Shown here: positions 13,723 through 35,236 of the stretch, piece after piece
Layout of the letters: each line of letters begins with the position of its first letter
Numbering within the stretch: position 1 is the first letter of the stretch
From: Thermoproteota archaeon
GTDB taxonomy: Archaea > Asgardarchaeota > Jordiarchaeia > Jordiarchaeales > Freyrarchaeaceae
Length of the DNA stretch: 61,274 nucleotides
Direction of reading: 5' to 3'
Assembly (NCBI GenBank): GCA_029258835.1
Contig: JAPDJY010000012.1
Coordinates: forward strand, 1-61,274
Translations under genes and position numbers: made by a program
The notes under the pieces: generated by a model
Databases searched by the model: none
Told to the model about the DNA's origin: nothing
What the model saw: the letters and a program-made list of their open reading frames with translations, nothing else

Positions 13723-16889
<3,167 letters not shown>

Positions 16890-27574: not shown

Positions 27575-27665
27575 TGGAGCCGCCGAGGGGATTTGAACCC
27601 CTGACCTGCGGATTACAATTTCGGTCTGGCGATGTCCGCCGCTCTTCCAGCTGAGCTACGGCGGC
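27575..27665 (-). tRNA. tRNA-Thr(TGT) with 15-nt intron at 32/33 (27619-27633)
   Basis: Canonical cloverleaf after removing ATCGCCAGACCGAAA; relaxed BHB; encoded CCA. Confidence 0.9.
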
Positions 27666-27841: not shown

Positions 27842-29050
27842 TTACATTTTTTGGAGTAACGGTGTTATGATTAGTGTTATCATCCCTGGTTTTATAGCTG
27901 ATTTCTTTGAAATATGACTTTGTATGGCTGCTGCTCTTTGTATTTCTATGGGGAGCTGCTCCAGTTCTACGTTTGTGTAGAATGCGATCATGTGGTTCTC
28001 TCCCAGTCTAGGGAGAAACTGTATTAGTAACGGGTTGATGAACTCTCTTTTTTTGGGGTTGTTGACGGTTACGACTATTCTTCTGCTTTGGGGTGCCGTC
28101 TTTATTTTCTGAGTCACATAGCGGATCTGGTTTACTTGTTTTCTTTCTCCTTCGTCGCTCTTCCCTTCGTATTTTTCTAGTTCTTGAAGGAGCTGGTAAT
28201 AACTTTCAGGGGGGTTTGGCGGTGGCTCGGCTTTCTCTATCCTTAAGGTTAAATACAGGTATTTCGTTGAATCATCTTGTTTTTCCGCATACCTTTGGAA
28301 GGCGTCTCTTACCCTCTTGATGGCTGACTGAGGCGTCGTAGCCGTTAACATTATTGGCCCAGCTATCCTGTTAGTTCTTTCATGCGTGTAGGTTGGAGTC
28401 TGATTTTGCTCTAATGCGAGTTTAACATCTTCTTCGGATGTTTTGTATATGTGGGCTGATGCTGAGATCGTGGTTGTTGTGCCTATGGACCGGATCCCTC
28501 TGAATTGTGATGCTACTTCCGTCAGGAAAACCCTGTTTATTCCTGCGACATCGTCTGGGTATGCCCTTGCCATGTCGTTGCTCCTGATGTACACTATTAC
28601 GTGGACGACGTCTGCAACCCTGTGGAATAGGATCATGTTGATGCAGGGTGGGTTAGCATTTTCAATATCTGAAACGGGGTTCCATAGTTGGATCAGGGCT
28701 ACTCTGTCCTCCTTCAGTTTTTCTTTAGCCTGCTTAACTTGGTCAACTTGAAACCTTTTTCTTGCGCACCAGCCGTAAGTGTACGTGTGCCCCCCTCTTT
28801 CGGATGTTATGTATTGAGGTATGTAGCTTTCCTGAAGCGTCTTTAAGTCCATTCCAATGTACCCACGTGGTAGGGGAGGGCCGCTCCTCCAGTTAGTTAA
28901 GTGGATCACGCACCCTATAGTTTCTAGGGTCTCTTGCTTTTTATCCTCGGTGGTTAAGGGGACTCCCTTCTGAAGGATTATCCTGTTCACCTGTCTCCAG
29001 GCGCCGTCTATGTGGCATACCCGCACTAAGTAGGGGCCGTAGGCCTTCAT
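27842..29050 (-). CDS. Tandem two-domain thymidylate synthase/dCMP hydroxymethylase-superfamily protein
   Basis: N-domain: YTYG, VDQV, LWNP, PPC catalytic Cys, RSNDMARAYPDD, SAHIY; C-domain is a degenerate copy (VNQIRYV..KIK..PQSRR..V..NP) lacking Cys. Confidence 0.85.
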   Translation of the reverse strand: MKAYGPYLVRVCHIDGAWRQVNRIILQKGVPLTTEDKKQETLETIGCVIHLTNWRSGPPLPRGYIGMDLKTLQESYIPQYITSERGGHTYTYGWCARKRFQVDQVKQAKEKLKEDRVALIQLWNPVSDIENANPPCINMILFHRVADVVHVIVYIRSNDMARAYPDDVAGINRVFLTEVASQFRGIRSIGTTTTISASAHIYKTSEEDVKLALEQNQTPTYTHERTNRIAGPIMLTATTPQSAIKRVRDAFQRYAEKQDDSTKYLYLTLRIEKAEPPPNPPESYYQLLQELEKYEGKSDEGERKQVNQIRYVTQKIKTAPQSRRIVVTVNNPKKREFINPLLIQFLPRLGENHMIAFYTNVELEQLPIEIQRAAAIQSHISKKSAIKPGMITLIITPLLQKM

Positions 29051-30549
29051 GTTCCATCCTTCCCCAACTGGTAGTATGGATGAACCGGCCTAGGCATCAC
29101 GTTAAGAACGTTGCACAGTTCGTCTGCCACAGTTACTTCTGCAGCTGCAACTTGCCGGAAAATTCTTGGAGCGTTTCTCATAGGTCCATAAAGATTTAGG
29201 TCTACACCGTAGAGTACGGGAAGGCTGTATATGAACGAGAAGTCCATTTTCTGCTTCATTTCCGGTGGGATGCCTGCATAAAGATTGTGGATGCCTATCG
29301 CCGTAGGGTATCCGTAATGGTTCTTTAGTGCCCATGACGAGTAAACAGCCTCTATGCTTCCTTCCCCAAGGATCGGGACGCCTGGGTCAAGAATAACGTT
29401 ATCAACCACTGCTCCTTTAACTCTGGATAGTATCTGGTCTATCTTTTTAAATCTGGCTTCAAGCGTGAAGTCGTAAGCCAGGATTATTGCATAGTCTATC
29501 GGGGATATTTCTTGAAGCATCCTTGCTTCCTTCTCTTCAACGCTTAGTATCGAGTTATAAATTATCCTCCCGTTCAACCCTGTTTCCTTCGCCACCCTCG
29601 TGGCTTCCACCCGTGCTTCCAAGCTTGTTGAATCGATTATTATTGGGGCATCTGTTACGTCCGCTACAAAGAACATATATTTTGTAAGTGCTTCGGCGGT
29701 CTCCCCAACCACATGGACCATTGAAGGTATCCCGTACTCCTCTGAGAGTTCCGCCTGCTGTATTATAAGTTTCTCCGCGCCTTCTTTATCGAATAAACCT
29801 TTCCTTCCATCTTTAACTAAAGGATCTTTCCTGAAGAAGAGCGTTCCAGCAAGGACGGAAGCATACTCTCCCCTCTGCCCCCCAAGCTTGACCCCTGCAA
29901 TGTCATAGACGATCAGCTTCCTGCGATGGAAAAGTGTATTTACCGGCTCAACCCCTCTTAGCCTTAGGTCCTCGCCCTCCCTTAGAACCCGTTCTAGCGC
30001 CGTCATCCAATCATATTTTTCCTCTCTCGGAGAGGGGAGAAGCGGCTGCTCGGGGTAGGCTTCAACCTGCCTTGCCGAGAAGGAACGAATTACTGAGACT
30101 ATCTTGTCAGGATCCTTCTCGCCACGTAAATCTATGATCTCGACTTGCTTTTTGAATCTTTCAACTACAATGTGAGGGGTAGCGATCTTAAAGTATTTCG
30201 GGTGAAGAATCGGGATTGTTCCCTCGCTCCCAATAACCCTAAAATCGTCTCCTATCCCGTTTTGGTGAAGTGCGACCAGAGTCTGTCCTGGCTCATGGCC
30301 TACCACCTTTTCTCCGCAGACAACGAGGAACCTGATGTGGCTGTTAGATACTACGTTCTGAAGTATCCTTGCTATTCCGTCATTTTCCGTTTCACATGAA
30401 CCTGCTATTGCGACAAGTTTAGGTTCTTTCGCGATGATCCTTTCAGGTAGGTCGTGGGATCCACAGGTTACAACGGCAAAGGATGCTTTCCTGTTCCCTA
30501 CGGTATAATCTCCAGCTATGTAAGGCCACTCCAACGTGCTGCCTCCCAC
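29047..30549 (-). CDS. mtrAH: Soluble MtrA (corrinoid) - MtrH (methyl-pterin methyltransferase) fusion
   Basis: MtrA: WPYIAGDY.VG, TCGSH, CETENDGI, NSHIRFLVVCGEKVVGHEPGQ (Co-ligand His); MtrH: IAGVKLGGQRGEY..VLAGTLF, GETAEAL, IIDST, IYNSI, GIHN, LYGP; no TM anchor. Confidence 0.9.
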   Translation of the reverse strand: MGGSTLEWPYIAGDYTVGNRKASFAVVTCGSHDLPERIIAKEPKLVAIAGSCETENDGIARILQNVVSNSHIRFLVVCGEKVVGHEPGQTLVALHQNGIGDDFRVIGSEGTIPILHPKYFKIATPHIVVERFKKQVEIIDLRGEKDPDKIVSVIRSFSARQVEAYPEQPLLPSPREEKYDWMTALERVLREGEDLRLRGVEPVNTLFHRRKLIVYDIAGVKLGGQRGEYASVLAGTLFFRKDPLVKDGRKGLFDKEGAEKLIIQQAELSEEYGIPSMVHVVGETAEALTKYMFFVADVTDAPIIIDSTSLEARVEATRVAKETGLNGRIIYNSILSVEEKEARMLQEISPIDYAIILAYDFTLEARFKKIDQILSRVKGAVVDNVILDPGVPILGEGSIEAVYSSWALKNHYGYPTAIGIHNLYAGIPPEMKQKMDFSFIYSLPVLYGVDLNLYGPMRNAPRIFRQVAAAEVTVADELCNVLNVMPRPVHPYYQLGKDGT

Positions 30550-30646
30550 AAAAAGTAAAAGACCTGTTTCACTCTTTTGTTTAAAATCACATCCTATAAA
30601 ACGTTCGGGGCGTTATTAGTTAAGTGGTACACCTTAAAACTAGGAC

Positions 30647-32237: not shown

Positions 32238-33281
32238 TCACATCGATATCATTTCTTCGTAACGGTAGCTTTCCCACTCTGGCTTGCAACTGCAGCTGAG
32301 TTTTTCGATTTCACTCACGTTTTGGCTTAGCGAAAACTTCCTCAGAGCTCCGTCAACTCTCTTATCGCATACGCCGCAGTTGTGAGGGCCCCTTGGGCTT
32401 CCTGAAGCTACAGGGACGCAGATCAACGTCGTATCAATTTCTCGATACACGTCTTGAATTATTTTCACTAGACTCCAGAGCCACGGAGGTCTATAATCAC
32501 CCTTCTTCCATAGTAGCTCAACGAAGGTGCCCTTGTGAACCGTGCAGGGATTCAGTGAGATAACGTCTACACCCATTTCAGATAGAGTTATAATAGAGTT
32601 CTCGGTGTCGATGATGGCCTCCTCCTCTCTTAAAAAAGGCGGCTTAACCAGGAGGTACACTTTAACCCTTGCTCCGAGAGCCTTTGCCACGTCCATTGCC
32701 TTCTTGAACTCCATGAACGTGAACCCTTTATTTATAACTTTCCTAACTTTATCGTTTACCGTTTCGAGCCCGACGGCTATGGTTAACTGCTTTCCTTTGA
32801 GAGCCTGAACGCACCTGCTAACGTTCTCGACCGTCACAAAGCTAGGACGTGTTTCGAGGACGACCTCTTTCACCCTGGGGTCTTTCGATATGAACCATAG
32901 GATTTCATTTTGCGCGTCTTCAGGAACCTCGTTTTCGTCGAGGAAGCTACCTGAAGTAAATATTTTCACAGCCATAGGAGGCTTAGCTGAGGAAGCCTTT
33001 CTGTATGCATCCTTAAACTGGTTAACGATTTGCTTGGAGGACACGTCACCCTTAACGCCTTCATAAATATATCCGCACATCGAACAACCACCATGCTTGG
33101 ATAGTGCCCAACTACACCCCCTAGTAGCTAAAACAACAACGAGTGCCCTCCCCCTTTCACCTAAAACCCTATCTTCTTCGATCCAAGCTCTCGCCGGCCG
33201 CCCTCCCTCCACCCTCCTGAGACCGAGGTACTCCTTTCTCAGCTCCAAGATAGCCTTCGAAAGAACCCTACTAAACGTCAA
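32238..33281 (-). CDS. Archaeosine biosynthesis radical SAM protein RaSEA
   Basis: TRGCSWA..GGCSMCGY, KIFTSGSFLD, ETRP, YRPPWLWS, RGPHNCG; adjacent to arcS. Confidence 0.9.
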   Translation of the reverse strand: MTFSRVLSKAILELRKEYLGLRRVEGGRPARAWIEEDRVLGERGRALVVVLATRGCSWALSKHGGCSMCGYIYEGVKGDVSSKQIVNQFKDAYRKASSAKPPMAVKIFTSGSFLDENEVPEDAQNEILWFISKDPRVKEVVLETRPSFVTVENVSRCVQALKGKQLTIAVGLETVNDKVRKVINKGFTFMEFKKAMDVAKALGARVKVYLLVKPPFLREEEAIIDTENSIITLSEMGVDVISLNPCTVHKGTFVELLWKKGDYRPPWLWSLVKIIQDVYREIDTTLICVPVASGSPRGPHNCGVCDKRVDGALRKFSLSQNVSEIEKLSCSCKPEWESYRYEEMISM

Positions 33282-35236
33282 CTTCCACCCCTCCTTGCAT
33301 GTTTAATCTTAACAGCTACCCCACGGCTAACCTCCACCATTTCCTCCCCGCTGAGGTTAGCCTCCCCTACCCCAATCAACCTCTCAAGACTATTTATGAC
33401 GAAAACCACGTCTCCAGGTCTTATGTTAGGATCAGCATCTTCAACTCCCGGAGCCATTATGGACGAGCCCCTAAACATCTCTCCCCTAAATAAAACCCAG
33501 TGGCTGCGCTTAGCTAATATTTCTCCCCCATTCATCGTTGGAACGATCAACCCCGTTGAAGGCGATGAAGCAGCTAGCAACACGTCCCCGCGATAAAGTC
33601 TCTTAACCCCCTTCCTCTCTACCTTTACGTGTGTACCCTGTTTAACCAGTAGGTCTCCTGCTCCAACACCGAACTGGTAATCTGCAACGCTTCTAAAGGC
33701 TTCTTTAACCCTTTCAAACCAGCTGACTTCCTCCGATGGAACTCTTTCTAATGTCTCCCTTAGGGAAAGTAGTGAAGACGAACTGGTCGGGTTTCCCTCT
33801 ATTTCCGTGTAAATTATGTCCTTACCTGCTATTTCACTCGCCTTCTTGCATGCTTTAAGGTATCCTCCATCAAGATGGGCTACTATAGCACAGTCATCAG
33901 GAAACTTCTCTATGTATTTTGAAATGCATTTAGCAGCTATTTCTATCTCTTCAGCATCCCAGTCCCCTGTTACCGGTACGTCGTAGTGTGCTGCAGGATA
34001 AACCTCCTCAAGCTCCCTTGGCACCAGCCCCAATGGGGAAGTCACTATCCCCTCACAGATGCTCTTGACTCCTGCTTCCTCCACCACCCTTCTGAAAAGC
34101 TTATGTGACGGTGACTGAGAGTATGGTTTTCTAGCGGAGCAAGGTAGGAGGAGGACGGCAGTAGCCCACTTGGGTGGCGTATACCTTTCAGCTACCCTTC
34201 CTCTGAACCGCTCTAAGGATGGACGATAATAAGACTCGGGTCCTACGCAATGTACCTTGCCTTTACCCGAAATAGGGGTGTATTTTTCTAGGAGCCGCTG
34301 CGCATCCCGGTCCAGTATTCGAAGGAGAGCAGTTAACTCCGTTGAACAGTGTGCCGCCGCCTCCACGCCTTCACGGAGCTGCGTGCTTCTTATGAGTAAC
34401 TCCGCTTTTCTTAGGATTCCCAACGCCGAAAGGACGTTATGCTTAAAAAGAAGCTGAAATCTTTCATCCTCACTTAGCACGCTTGGCAGTTTTACACACG
34501 CATCACAGAAGCATGGTAAACTCTTAAAGTCCTTCAACTGGTACCATTTCCCCTCAAAAAGGTAAAGCCCATTTAGCGATGCGCCGATTAGGTTTGCCGC
34601 GTCGAATAGGTCAACACCCAAGTATGTTAGGTGAAGGTAGTGTGATGGTGGAACCCCTACAGCGTAAACCACAGCATTAGGGCTAATAAACTTGTTAACA
34701 GCCGTCATAAAAGCAGCCAGCTCCCTTGGGTTATGGATAATACGGTTTAGCCCCTTCAAAACGTACATTTCAGCGCCGGCAGCATTGATCCCTGAAAGAT
34801 ATTCTTCCCAAAGATCCTTGTAAGGTATGTAATATATCGGGGCTGCTATAGGTGATCCCCCAGCCAGCTTCCTGAAAACCCTAGTATTTTCTATTACTTC
34901 AAGCATTAGCTGCTGGGCTACCTCCCGAGGCCCGATAACTGGCGTACTGGGAACCATTAGGATGTCGCCACCTGACTTTAACTCCATGTTTAAGGCTTCC
35001 TCTAAATCAAGAAGTAATGGTCCTATGGTGCCTACAATTCGAACCTTCTCCCTGAAAGTTGCATTTACTAGAGCACCACTACTTGACGCTACAACTACCG
35101 TTATTTCGGCTTGAACCGGTAGGCTAAAATGGCCGTTGAGTAATGGAAACACTAGGTTCGGCGTTCCCACCACTTTCCCGTTAATTCTTAAACGGGATAC
35201 TCTTCCGGGTCCATCATGGCACATTATCTCGATCAT
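33278..35236 (-). CDS. arcS: Archaeosine synthase alpha subunit (TGT-like plus PUA)
   Basis: HDGPGR, YLGVDLFD, LLPCSARKPYSQSPSH, VTSPLGLVPRELE..YPAAHYDVPVTGDW, C-terminal PUA. Confidence 0.93.
   Translation of the reverse strand: MIEIMCHDGPGRVSRLRINGKVVGTPNLVFPLLNGHFSLPVQAEITVVVASSSGALVNATFREKVRIVGTIGPLLLDLEEALNMELKSGGDILMVPSTPVIGPREVAQQLMLEVIENTRVFRKLAGGSPIAAPIYYIPYKDLWEEYLSGINAAGAEMYVLKGLNRIIHNPRELAAFMTAVNKFISPNAVVYAVGVPPSHYLHLTYLGVDLFDAANLIGASLNGLYLFEGKWYQLKDFKSLPCFCDACVKLPSVLSEDERFQLLFKHNVLSALGILRKAELLIRSTQLREGVEAAAHCSTELTALLRILDRDAQRLLEKYTPISGKGKVHCVGPESYYRPSLERFRGRVAERYTPPKWATAVLLLPCSARKPYSQSPSHKLFRRVVEEAGVKSICEGIVTSPLGLVPRELEEVYPAAHYDVPVTGDWDAEEIEIAAKCISKYIEKFPDDCAIVAHLDGGYLKACKKASEIAGKDIIYTEIEGNPTSSSSLLSLRETLERVPSEEVSWFERVKEAFRSVADYQFGVGAGDLLVKQGTHVKVERKGVKRLYRGDVLLAASSPSTGLIVPTMNGGEILAKRSHWVLFRGEMFRGSSIMAPGVEDADPNIRPGDVVFVINSLERLIGVGEANLSGEEMVEVSRGVAVKIKHARRGGS

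Follow-up and report, generated by a model that had tools for sequence, protein, structure and literature searches.

A single-chain tandem thymidylate synthase relative paired with an MtrA-MtrH fusion protein in Asgard archaea

The window, i.e. the whole stretch of 61,274 nucleotides that was analysed, carries on its reverse strand a gene for a tandem (pseudo-dimeric) protein of the thymidylate synthase (TS) fold (P0001, positions 27842..29050), an open reading frame of 402 amino acids plus stop. Its operon partner, located directly upstream on the same strand, is an MtrA-MtrH fusion gene (P0002, MtrAH, 500 aa, 29047..30549) recognised by PF04208 and PF02007. The two genes overlap in an ATGA (29047..29050, reverse strand), where the start codon of the TS lies over the stop codon of MtrAH, as could be read in the sequence. 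About 45 nt upstream of the GTG start of MtrAH, in the intergenic region between this gene and the divergent NIF3 gene, the TATA-like element TTTATAGG (30593..30600, reverse strand) is a candidate promoter on the basis of sequence alone. The neighbouring genes, encoding NIF3, a hexapeptide transferase, a radical SAM protein, an ArcS-like protein and IlvE, showed no link to the TS-MtrAH pair. Literature searches returned no paper on a tandem TS-MtrAH operon and nothing relevant on MtrAH in connection with thymidylate synthase.

In profile searches the whole tandem TS matched the ThyA family PF00303 with 64.7 bits (cut-off 24.3), and the equivalog TIGR03283 with 109.2 bits, under its cut-off of 174.55, the N-domain giving 93 bits. 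Relatives were gathered by exhaustive phmmer, a word-based search with the N-domain having yielded four proteins, and 33 full-length homologues of 389-434 aa were found in Asgard archaea. Structure prediction of the full-length protein gave a model with a pLDDT of 91.1 and a pTM of 0.92.

The N-domain (residues 1-222; 28385..29050, reverse strand) is the catalytically equipped half. It matched TIGR03283 with an E-value of 1.7e-26 over positions 2-197 of 201, and residues 1-220 matched PF00303 with 9e-12. Residues C136, R156, S157, N158, D159, D167, H200 and Y202 are invariant in this domain. The nucleophile Cys136, within the motif NPPC, is encoded by TGC at 28643..28645 (reverse strand, codon checked) and is invariant in tandem and non-tandem relatives alike, while R156-S157-N158-D159 (28574..28585, reverse strand, codons checked) align with R166-S167-C168-D169 of E. 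coli ThyA, and A199-H200-I201-Y202 is also present. For the complete catalytic set of ThyA (E. coli C146, R166/S167/D169, H207/Y209 and Y94), the invariant counterparts C136, R156, S157, D159, H200, Y202 and Y92 could be assigned. The position of the ThyA motif SRR is taken by D115-R116-V117, which is not conserved across the tandem family. A further group of pocket residues near Tyr92 (H50, W54, Y80, H88, W94, K98, R99 and D167) is invariant in the tandem family alone.

The C-domain (residues 226-402; 27845..28375, reverse strand) could be recognised as a degenerate TS fold from the model, a PDB fold search and tblastn. Its match to TS profiles is weak (E about 2e-4), and tblastn against single-domain Thorarchaeota TS genes reached 1e-11. 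When folded alone, the domain gave a pLDDT of 91.6. Among 48,161 PDB representatives its top seven fold matches were all TS-superfamily chains, with Z 15.7-11.7 over about 160 of the 177 residues, and the first match after these chains had Z 5.4. The catalytic Cys position is occupied by Leu342 (28025..28027, reverse strand; NPLLIQ versus NPPCIN, hhalign onto Cys136, codon checked). S322-R323-R324 (28079..28087, reverse strand, codons checked), equivalent to S125-R126-R127 of ThyA, are invariant in 18 sequences and were placed by hhalign onto D115-R116-V117 of the N-domain.

Each chain consequently holds two unequal TS domains, with SRR solely in the C-domain and Cys and RSND solely in the N-domain. 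In the ThyA homodimer, R126' and R127' of the other subunit complete each active site. We infer that the two domains of the tandem protein pack as in the ThyA dimer and that S322-R323-R324 reach into the active site of the N-domain. ThyA is a homodimer with two equivalent sites, whereas the tandem TS is a single chain lacking such equivalence. A preliminary description of this DNA had proposed two TS-fold domains in one chain, an N-domain with the catalytic Cys, RSND and HIY but no Arg-Arg pair, and a C-domain that had lost Cys and RSND and kept the Arg pair; profiles, conservation and the fold of the C-domain bear out all of this. The possibility that the C-domain does not have the TS fold, which had been raised along with it, was examined by an unbiased PDB search of the model, and a TS fold was found. 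The single composite active site proposed there also holds up as a prediction from the TS fold of the modelled C-domain, the invariant Arg-Arg and the disappearance of that domain's own catalytic residues. The best explanation of the gene product is a single-chain pseudo-dimer of a short archaeal thymidylate synthase with one active site per chain.

The short archaeal TS (TIGR03283; Thorarchaeota loci L021 and L022) share with the N-domain the same minimal fold of approximately 200 aa and the Cys, RSND, AHIY and Tyr-Gly motifs. They are single-domain proteins and presumably homodimers, with SRR and Cys in one chain, with Asn at position 177 and without an adjacent MtrA or MtrH gene, while the tandem TS has an obligatory MtrAH neighbour, a composite site and Asp167. 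The cofactor of the TIGR03283 family has hardly been studied (PMC9012536, PMC9931769). The one-carbon donor of the short archaeal thymidylate synthases is poorly known, and the tandem TS-MtrAH pair makes the question testable.

Besides its asymmetry, the tandem TS differs from ThyA in the residue that faces the base. ThyA uses Asn177 to read O4 and N3-H of uracil, and exchange of this Asn for Asp reportedly switches the specificity towards dCMP, according to work on L. casei TS and the T4 enzyme. In a HMMER alignment to the ThyA structure PDB 3ix6, Asp167 (codon GAT, 28550..28552, reverse strand) occupies the position of E. coli Asn177, the segment 'aypDDvag' of the tandem TS pairing with 'gvpFNias' of the solved ThyA. 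The tandem TS accordingly does not have the Asn177 of ThyA and carries, in Asp167, the acidic residue typical of dCMP enzymes. Asp was found at this position in 35 of 35 tandem homologues and Asn in 108 non-tandem relatives, so that the replacement of Asn177 noted in the preliminary description is real and specific to the tandem family. Asn is present at this position in P0041, a divergent tandem relative. This protein and P0048, the other divergent form, are 415-416 aa long and originate from Logan assemblies; no relatives of the two were retrieved from genome, viral or metagenome contigs. An Asp such as Asp167 would ordinarily be expected to prefer cytosine to uracil, which counts against a reading in which dUMP is methylated through a corrinoid.

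Enzymes of the TS fold that act on cytosine nucleotides, namely T4 dCMP hydroxymethylase (6l18), MilA (5jnh, 5b6e) and AfhB (9iqu, 9iqc), gave the best fold scores to the N-domain (Z 22.5-20). AfhB 9iqu matched with Z 22.5 and an rmsd of 2.1 over 198 aligned residues and MilA with Z 20.5, and L. casei TS followed with Z 19.5 (200 residues, rmsd 2.4). The T4 enzyme has an acidic residue (D179) at the Asn177 position, like Asp167. The PDB entries among the fold matches include 1njc (L. casei TS N229D with dCMP) and 6l18 (T4 dCMP hydroxymethylase D179N with dTMP). AfhB, a flavin-dependent dCMP hydroxylase with FAD named in the title of 9iqc, is an example of the TS fold with a non-folate cofactor; a literature search on AfhB with dCMP found nothing relevant. 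In contrast to the tandem TS, these enzymes are homo-oligomers with complete sites, belong to phages or antibiotic pathways, and none of them is the only TS of a cell. To our knowledge none works with a corrinoid protein.

The partner P0002 consists of an MtrA domain (PF04208, 6.8e-42, residues 7-171) and an MtrH domain of the pterin:corrinoid methyltransferase kind (PF02007, 3.5e-60, 204 bits, residues 211-475). The score of the latter against the equivalog TIGR01114 was 191.8, under the cut-off of 271.4, and it is therefore a divergent MtrH; the protein also matched NF047990 (MtgA) with 1.4e-49, likewise under the cut-off. In the MtrH domain, Asp306, Asn332, Asp388 and Asn422 are invariant, and we take them to correspond to the Asp/Asn residues that bind the pterin in enzymes of the MeTr type. 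By alignment to the MtrA structures 5laa and 5l8x, His85 (30295..30297, reverse strand) is the equivalent of the cobalt ligand His84 of MtrA, for which, together with Glu54, roles have been described (PMC4915002). H85 and E55, corresponding to His84 and Glu54, are invariant in 17 Asgard MtrAH sequences, as expected of a corrinoid protein, and so is the motif GTIP. Judged by its sequence, MtrAH looks catalytically intact. CobS was detected in one of five tandem genomes, which means that the corrinoid must come by import or via other genes.

An Asgard MtrAH clade has already been described by Valentin-Alvarado et al. 2024 (PMC11291895), covering the same protein type in Atabeyarchaeia, Freyarchaeia and other Asgard archaea; the fate of the methyl group was stated there to be unknown, the methyl acceptor was left open and thymidylate is unmentioned. 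Homologues of the tandem TS also carry the lineage names Atabeyarchaeia and Freyarchaeia. New relative to that study is the identification of the tandem TS as a conserved partner of MtrAH that is predicted to bind it. For non-methanogens, a role of MtrAH in feeding methyl groups to the Wood-Ljungdahl pathway has been proposed (PMC9635834).

The association of the two genes is strict. MtrAH was found directly upstream on the same strand at all 17 other tandem TS loci, with TS identities of 37-61%, and among 201 sampled Asgard genomes the 18 with the tandem TS are precisely those that have the full-length MtrAH fusion. This coupling, which was not part of the finding in the preliminary description, is probably the most important feature of the system. 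Prediction of the TS-MtrAH complex gave ipSAE values of 0.89, 0.87 and 0.89, the best of three controls giving 0.00. Of 80 solved complexes 58 pass the ipSAE mark, as do 2 of 110 mismatched pairs; these counts are approximate here, own alignments having been used. The runs share at least 76% of contacts, and the pLDDT of the partners is at least 88. In the model the TS contacts mainly MtrH loops preceding beta-strands (residues 216-221, 273-277, 296-302 and 322-328), a face that by our reading would lie opposite the pterin site, and the active-site residues of the TS lie outside the interface. The model therefore depicts a scaffold contact and does not show the corrinoid placed against the nucleotide.

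ThyA and ThyX are the only two types of thymidylate synthase that organisms generally use. The tandem TS is the sole PF00303 gene in its own genome, which is 94.7% complete and in which no ThyX was found. ThyX was also found in none of 19 sampled genomes from five tandem-carrying families, three of these genomes being single-contig, while it is common in Asgard families without the ThyA type. Searches for thymidine kinase in five tandem genomes gave no hit, and neither another ThyA nor FolA was found in the tandem genomes checked. Because ThyX, another ThyA, thymidine kinase and FolA are all missing in these searches, the tandem TS is very probably the thymidylate synthase of the lineages that carry it. 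Jordarchaeia/Freyarchaeia, Atabeyarchaeia and some Lokiarchaeia/Promethearchaeota (names as in the records) thus appear to rely on an altered relative of ThyA that departs from it in three respects: an asymmetric single chain, a changed base-reading residue and a lock to a B12-type methyl carrier. As judged from sequences and models, the pairing with a B12-type methyl-transfer protein suggests a possible way to make the DNA base T. The absence of FolA was considered as support for a route free of dihydropterin and was set aside, as organisms that make H4MPT already require dihydromethanopterin reductase for its biosynthesis.

With respect to substrate supply, dCTP deaminase and dUTPase, the usual source of dUMP, scored above their curated cut-offs in the own genome. 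Conversion of 5-methyl-dCMP to dTMP requires a dCMP deaminase of the CDA type, and no PF00383 deaminase was found in the own genome or in three of five other tandem genomes, two of them single-contig. A cytosine nucleotide as substrate of the tandem TS is therefore possible but weakened, given the presence of dCTP deaminase and dUTPase and the lack of a CDA-type deaminase in the own genome. A possible methyl donor is available, since the Mer gene scored 454.7 bits against a cut-off of 348.7.

Three-component corrinoid systems (MT1/corrinoid protein/MT2, such as MtrA-H and MtgA) have in common with the TS-MtrAH pair a His-ligated corrinoid carrier, a pterin methyltransferase belonging to the MtrH/MtgA family and a third bound protein, the binding being predicted here. 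The membrane subunits MtrB-G are not present beside the Asgard MtrAH. The known acceptors and donors of corrinoid methyltransferase systems are thiols, amines, ethers and metal centres; compared with these, a nucleotide that is bound by a TS-fold protein and reacts through a carbon nucleophile would be new.

In the mechanism that we propose, the tandem TS and MtrAH would form a 1:1 complex acting as the sole thymidylate-forming system of these Asgard lineages. The nucleotide site would be built in the N-domain from Cys136, Lys37, Arg156, Ser157, Asp159, Asp167, His200 and Tyr202, with the C-domain giving only Arg323 and Arg324, so that each chain would have one site. MtrH would transfer the methyl group of methyl-H4MPT to Co(I) of the MtrA domain, and the resulting methyl-Co(III) corrinoid would methylate C5 of the nucleotide once Cys136 had activated it by adding to C6. 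The product would be dTMP, formed without dihydropterin, and the acceptor would most likely be dUMP. We deduce both the corrinoid-borne methyl transfer and which nucleotide accepts it, and to this path, from methyl-H4MPT over MtrH and the corrinoid of MtrA to C5 of the Cys136-activated nucleotide, we give a little under an even chance. That the pair constitutes a third, corrinoid-dependent thymidylate synthase, taking over the methyl group of methyl-H4MPT or methyl-H4F intact and involving neither dihydropterin nor flavin, is put forward tentatively, as a good possibility that falls short of being probable. Passage of the methyl group through the corrinoid, if real, would add a new enzymatic way of making a DNA base and a rare case of polar C-methylation by methylcobalamin, and the orphan Asgard MtrAH clade would gain a function.

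A conventional ThyA reaction is the most serious competitor of this proposal, although we regard it as unlikely. The tandem TS would then use methylene-H4MPT or methylene-H4F to methylate dUMP reductively, releasing dihydropterin, the corrinoid of MtrAH would stand outside the TS chemistry, and MtrAH would be bound for scaffolding, for regulation or to tie C1 flux to DNA synthesis. Such a role fits with the retention of every catalytic residue of ThyA except Asn177, including Asp159 (equivalent to the pterin-binding Asp169), Tyr92 and Glu43, with the PF00303 score above cut-off, with the position of the protein as sole TS next to genes for dUMP supply, with a predicted MtrAH interface away from the TS active site and with the existing need of H4MPT makers for dihydromethanopterin reductase. 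It leaves unexplained, however, the constant adjacency and the identical co-occurrence of tandem TS and MtrAH in 18 of 201 genomes, the conservation of corrinoid ligands in a partner that would be chemically idle, and the family-specific change of Asn to Asp with its remodelled pocket; within 4 kb of the single-domain TS genes of Thorarchaeota there is no gene for MtrA or MtrH. Even a classical enzyme would be of value to the long debate on half-the-sites reactivity in TS, as a naturally occurring single chain with just one working site. The reading offered in the preliminary description is that Asp167 confers specificity for a cytosine nucleotide (here dCMP, CMP or dCTP) and that the 5-methyl-dCMP formed either goes on to dTMP by deamination or serves as a modified base. 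It would work with either C1 source and seems to us somewhat less likely still. The uniform Asp of the tandem family against Asn in the 108 relatives speaks for it, as do the top N-domain fold matches, which act on cytosine nucleotides (AfhB Z 22.5 and MilA Z 20.5 versus 19.5 for ThyA), and the structures 1njc and 6l18. The advantage in Z is small, however, and may merely reflect the short length of the cytosine enzymes, while the Asn of P0041, the missing PF00383 deaminases, the retention of two enzymes whose joint product is dUMP, and the standing of the tandem TS as sole candidate source of thymidylate where no thymidine kinase was found all weigh against it. A reversed, catabolic flow appears very improbable: here scavenged DNA would supply dTMP or 5-methyl-dCMP for activation by the TS-fold protein, Co(I)-MtrA would take the methyl group, and MtrH would pass it via H4MPT to the Wood-Ljungdahl pathway. 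MtgA of the MtrH family, whose profile P0002 matches below cut-off, is a methyl-corrinoid:pterin methyltransferase in demethylation, and the published proposal for non-methanogen MtrAH cited above points in the same direction. Under this scheme, however, the genomes would be left without any thymidylate synthase. The Asgard families with the tandem TS and those with ThyX or ThyA also complement one another, a pattern in keeping with the replacement of one biosynthetic enzyme by another. Moreover, we know of no case in which Co(I) cleaves a C-methyl bond.

A wider association of short TS with MtrA-fold domains is seen in fusions of an MtrA-like domain, a TS and a PterinBD-DUF4346 domain in CPR, DPANN and some Methanosarcinales (e.g. 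P0039, P0042 and P0062), which resemble the tandem pair in this respect. PF14251 (DUF4346) had no match in the proteins of the present locus, P0001 matching PF00303 alone and P0002 PF04208 and PF02007 alone, and a literature search on DUF4346 and on MtrA-thymidylate synthase fusions found nothing relevant. These fusions were considered as support for corrinoid chemistry and set aside; their MtrA-like domains mostly lack the cobalt-ligand His, and the wider MtrA-TS association is therefore by itself no argument for such chemistry. The fusions are single chains with a complete TS (SRR, Cys and Asn) and no MtrH domain, and the cobalt-ligand His and Glu are mostly lacking in their MtrA-like domain, whereas the Asgard MtrA domain is of the bona fide corrinoid type and is fused to MtrH.

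The open reading frame at 27842-29050 (-) encodes a protein of 402 residues with two fused thymidylate synthase (TS) domains, which confirms the tandem architecture observed in the preliminary description. TIGR03283, the model for short archaeal thymidylate synthases, matches the first 220 residues (1.7e-26, profile positions 2-197 of 201), as does PF00303 (9e-12); this half contains the motifs NPPC with Cys136, R156-S157-N158-D159, A199-H200-I201-Y202 and the pair Tyr92-Gly93. The S-R-R site of ThyA is replaced in this N-domain by D115-R116-V117, at positions that vary among homologues. The C-terminal 180 residues matched TS models weakly (E about 2e-4), and their identification as a real TS domain is based on tblastn, hhalign and structure comparison. 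By tblastn, the C-domain matched single-domain Thorarchaeota TS genes down to 1e-11, several of the matches covering domain residues 7-169. Alignment by hhalign of a profile of C-domains with the N-domain of the tandem TS placed S322-R323-R324 on D115-R116-V117 and NPLLIQ on NPPCIN, with Leu342 in place of the Cys. The C-domain modelled alone (pLDDT 91.6, pTM 0.87) was compared with 48,161 PDB representatives without a prefilter; TS-superfamily chains took all of the first seven places (Z 15.7 to 11.7, 151-165 aligned residues, rmsd 2.3-3.9) and the next-best match reached Z 5.4, so this half does have the TS fold on which the preliminary reading depended. The closest solved structures to both TS domains were the 2025 PDB entries 9iqu and 9iqc of AfhB from phage HY126, a short TS-fold dCMP hydroxylase crystallised with FAD, which shows that a minimal TS fold can use a non-folate cofactor.

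In the ThyA dimer, R126' and R127' complete the phosphate site of the partner subunit. The proposal that the single chain forms one composite site is supported by the residue pattern: the Arg-Arg pair is conserved only in the C-domain, whose own catalytic residues are gone, while the N-domain conserves everything but that pair, with Cys and RSND found only there. This is the pattern expected if Arg323 and Arg324 complete the N-domain phosphate site. The full-length AlphaFold model forms one confident body (pLDDT 91.1, pTM 0.92) with the order of secondary-structure elements repeated in both halves, and the two domains would be packed like the ThyA dimer.

Full-length homologues (n = 33; 389-434 aa, 36-63% identity) carry the record names Jordarchaeales, Freyarchaeota, Jordarchaeum, Atabeyarchaeia, Promethearchaeota and Lokiarchaeia. 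When 1.84 billion representatives were searched exhaustively with phmmer, 455 hits were obtained, and only four cluster representatives among them are of the tandem type. In the 18 sequences taken from genomes, C136, R156, S157, N158, D159, R162, D167, H200 and Y202 are invariant in the N-domain and S322, R323, R324, N339, P340, Q344 and R348 in the C-domain. An Asp at the position of E. coli Asn177, also claimed earlier, was recovered by HMMER: 'aypDDvag' of the tandem TS lies over 'gvpFNias' of the solved ThyA 3ix6, and Asp167 therefore occupies this place. It is Asp in every tandem sequence and Asn in 108 non-tandem relatives; the single-domain TS of other Asgard archaea have RSNDMYGAWPAN in their sequence and carry SRR and Cys within one chain. 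Judged by these sequences, the Asn-to-Asp change and the split site are derived features of the tandem family. K37, Q39, H50, W54, Y80, H88, W94, K98, R99, Q121 and T204 are invariant in tandem proteins only, and several of them flank Tyr92, the counterpart of ThyA Tyr94, which lies beside the cofactor site of that enzyme.

A second, more divergent tandem subfamily is represented by two proteins of 415-416 aa from Logan assemblies (P0041 and P0048). Their N-domain has CPC and lacks RR, their C-domain has S/TRR with 'MNPxHxQ' replacing the Cys motif, and at the 177 position one has Asn and the other Asp. A further protein of 160 aa (P0038, on a 1.9-kb contig) matches the C-domain only (residues 258-399, SRR included) and may be a short-contig fragment or a free-standing degenerate TS half.

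The gene directly upstream (29047-30549 (-)) encodes a 500-aa fusion of MtrA and MtrH domains (MtrAH), and its stop codon TGA and the TS start codon ATG overlap in the sequence ATGA. As the genes on either side are unrelated and the nearest one upstream runs divergently, the pair looks like a two-gene operon. The MtrA domain (PF04208, 6.8e-42, residues 7-171) could be aligned with two solved MtrA structures, 5laa and 5l8x (1e-33 to 1e-32), and retains both the cobalt ligand (His84 in MtrA, His85 here) and the partner residue of that ligand (Glu54 in MtrA, Glu55 here); the MtrH domain (PF02007, 3.5e-60) spans residues 211-475. Across 17 Asgard MtrAH proteins there is no variation at His85, Glu55, the GTIP motif or the MtrH-barrel residues Asp306, Asn332, Asp388 and Asn422, and by this conservation both parts of MtrAH, the corrinoid protein and the methyl-pterin methyltransferase fused to it, look functional. 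Genomes with the tandem TS also hold one to four stand-alone MtrH paralogues (e.g. G000:C24:21768-22619 (+), genome and contig, and loci in G006, G017, G028 and others), so corrinoid-dependent methyl transfer is in wider use in these organisms.

The larger finding is that the one-site tandem TS is paired with a corrinoid methyltransferase, an association that is strictly conserved and is also predicted to be physical. MtrAH is located directly upstream on the same strand in all 17 other tandem-TS loci, which come from five GTDB families (37-61% TS identity, 45-69% MtrAH identity). Among 201 sampled Asgard genomes, 18 have the tandem TS and exactly those 18 gave full-length MtrAH matches, the others giving matches of MtrH length only. 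No MtrA, MtrH or DUF4346 genes were found within 4 kb of single-domain Thorarchaeota TS genes. In one family of Thorarchaeia-type genomes, the contig with the single-domain TS gene also has one or two genes for MtrH alone, some 17-22 kb away (G055:C21, G142:C20, G154:C7, G075:C1, G127:C1, G166:C2, G102:C1 and others), probably as inherited synteny with no functional link.

Complex prediction for the tandem TS and MtrAH gave ipSAE values of 0.89, 0.87 and 0.89 against 0.00 for the best of three controls; the threshold applied was passed by 58 of 80 solved complexes and by 2 of 110 mismatched pairs, a calibration that holds only roughly here because the predictions used our own alignments. At least 76% of contacts agreed between runs, with partner pLDDT of at least 88. 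No solved TS-MtrH complex is known to us, so the predictor is unlikely to have merely reproduced an existing structure. The predicted interface comprises, in each TS domain, the first strand and helix (7-23, 231-254) and also the interdomain linker (204-228), facing MtrH loops 216-221, 262-277, 296-302, 322-328 and 487-490 and MtrA residues 12-13 and 176. One MtrH loop contacts the equivalent strands of both TS domains, which in the model places MtrAH on the TS pseudo-twofold axis. A symmetric homodimer offers no 1:1 site on its axis, and this may be the reason for the TS gene fusion and its asymmetry.

The organism's own genome (94.7% complete) contains no second PF00303 gene and no ThyX. ThyX was found in none of the 19 genomes sampled from the five families with a tandem TS (three are single contigs) and is common in Asgard families without the ThyA type; five tandem genomes yielded no thymidine kinase of the TK family. 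The tandem TS is distributed in a pattern that complements those of ThyX, canonical ThyA and single-domain TS, and together with MtrAH it is therefore very probably the thymidylate source of these organisms, serving several Asgard classes as their sole such system.

Asp at the Asn177 position is a mark of TS homologues acting on cytosine nucleotides, and such a substrate had been predicted from Asp167. The N-domain's structural matches agree, the cytosine-nucleotide enzymes AfhB (Z 22.5) and MilA (Z 20.5) ranking ahead of ThyA (Z 19.5). Against this, dUMP is the joint product of two enzymes encoded in the genome, a dCTP deaminase (137 bits against a cut-off of 92.8) and an archaeal dUTPase (166 bits against 130); a PF00383 deaminase, which could turn 5-methyl-dCMP into dTMP, was not detected here, nor in three of the five further tandem-TS genomes searched; and one divergent tandem relative has Asn. 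The residue assignment stands and the substrate prediction is somewhat weakened: a cytosine nucleotide is now a rather doubtful substrate, and dUMP a reasonably likely one.

A true Mer is present (454.7 bits), and methyl-H4MPT, the substrate of MtrH, is therefore made. If MtrAH is tightly bound and catalytically intact, its simplest role would be to hand its methyl group to the ligand of the TS-fold protein, whichever that is. In ThyA and in SAM-dependent C5-pyrimidine methyltransferases, addition of a Cys at C6 turns C5 into a carbon nucleophile, and methyl-Co(III) is an electrophilic methyl donor. By analogy, Cys136 would add at C6 of the bound nucleotide, and its C5 would then receive the methyl from methyl-Co(III) of MtrAH, giving dTMP with no dihydropterin formed. 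Three observations do not favour this route: Asp159, equivalent to the pterin-binding Asp169 of ThyA, is kept; the predicted interface is a scaffold contact in which the corrinoid is not docked on the nucleotide; and of five genomes searched for CobS, only one gave a match. FolA was not found, which is uninformative since these organisms use H4MPT. If true, the corrinoid route would define a new class of thymidylate synthase; on what is shown, the pair is a new variant within a known enzyme family.

The nearest non-tandem relatives are mostly proteins of 450-550 aa with the order MtrA-like, TS and PterinBD-DUF4346, from CPR bacteria, DPANN archaea, uncultured Bacilli and one Methanosarcinales MAG. 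They represent a second, independent physical link of the MtrA fold with a short TS. Unlike MtrAH, their MtrA-like domain mostly lacks the His and Glu cobalt network, and unlike the tandem TS their TS domain is complete and has Asn; they are a different solution and, with the network mostly missing, no argument for corrinoid chemistry.

The Asgard MtrAH fusion clade was described by Valentin-Alvarado et al. 2024 (PMC11291895), who left the fate of the methyl group uncertain and never mentioned thymidylate. Filée et al. 2023 (PMC9931769) treated Asgard thymidylate synthases without mention of tandem or fused forms or of Mtr, and noted that archaeal TS are not characterised; according to Chadwick et al. 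2022 (PMC9012536), ThyA biochemistry in methanogens is little known. Our literature search found no paper linking the tandem TS gene with MtrAH.

Elsewhere in the window, a complete archaeal LSU rRNA gene is located at 13767-16845 (+); Rfam detected no SSU or 5S rRNA across the 61 kb, so the rRNA genes of this genome appear unlinked. Directly 3' of the TS gene, a tRNA gene (27578-27665 (-)) gave an Rfam match of 88 nt to a 71-position model, which suggests an intron. At 32238-35236 (-), a radical SAM gene overlaps an ArcS-like gene with TGT, DUF5591 and PUA domains, probably an archaeosine-related pair.
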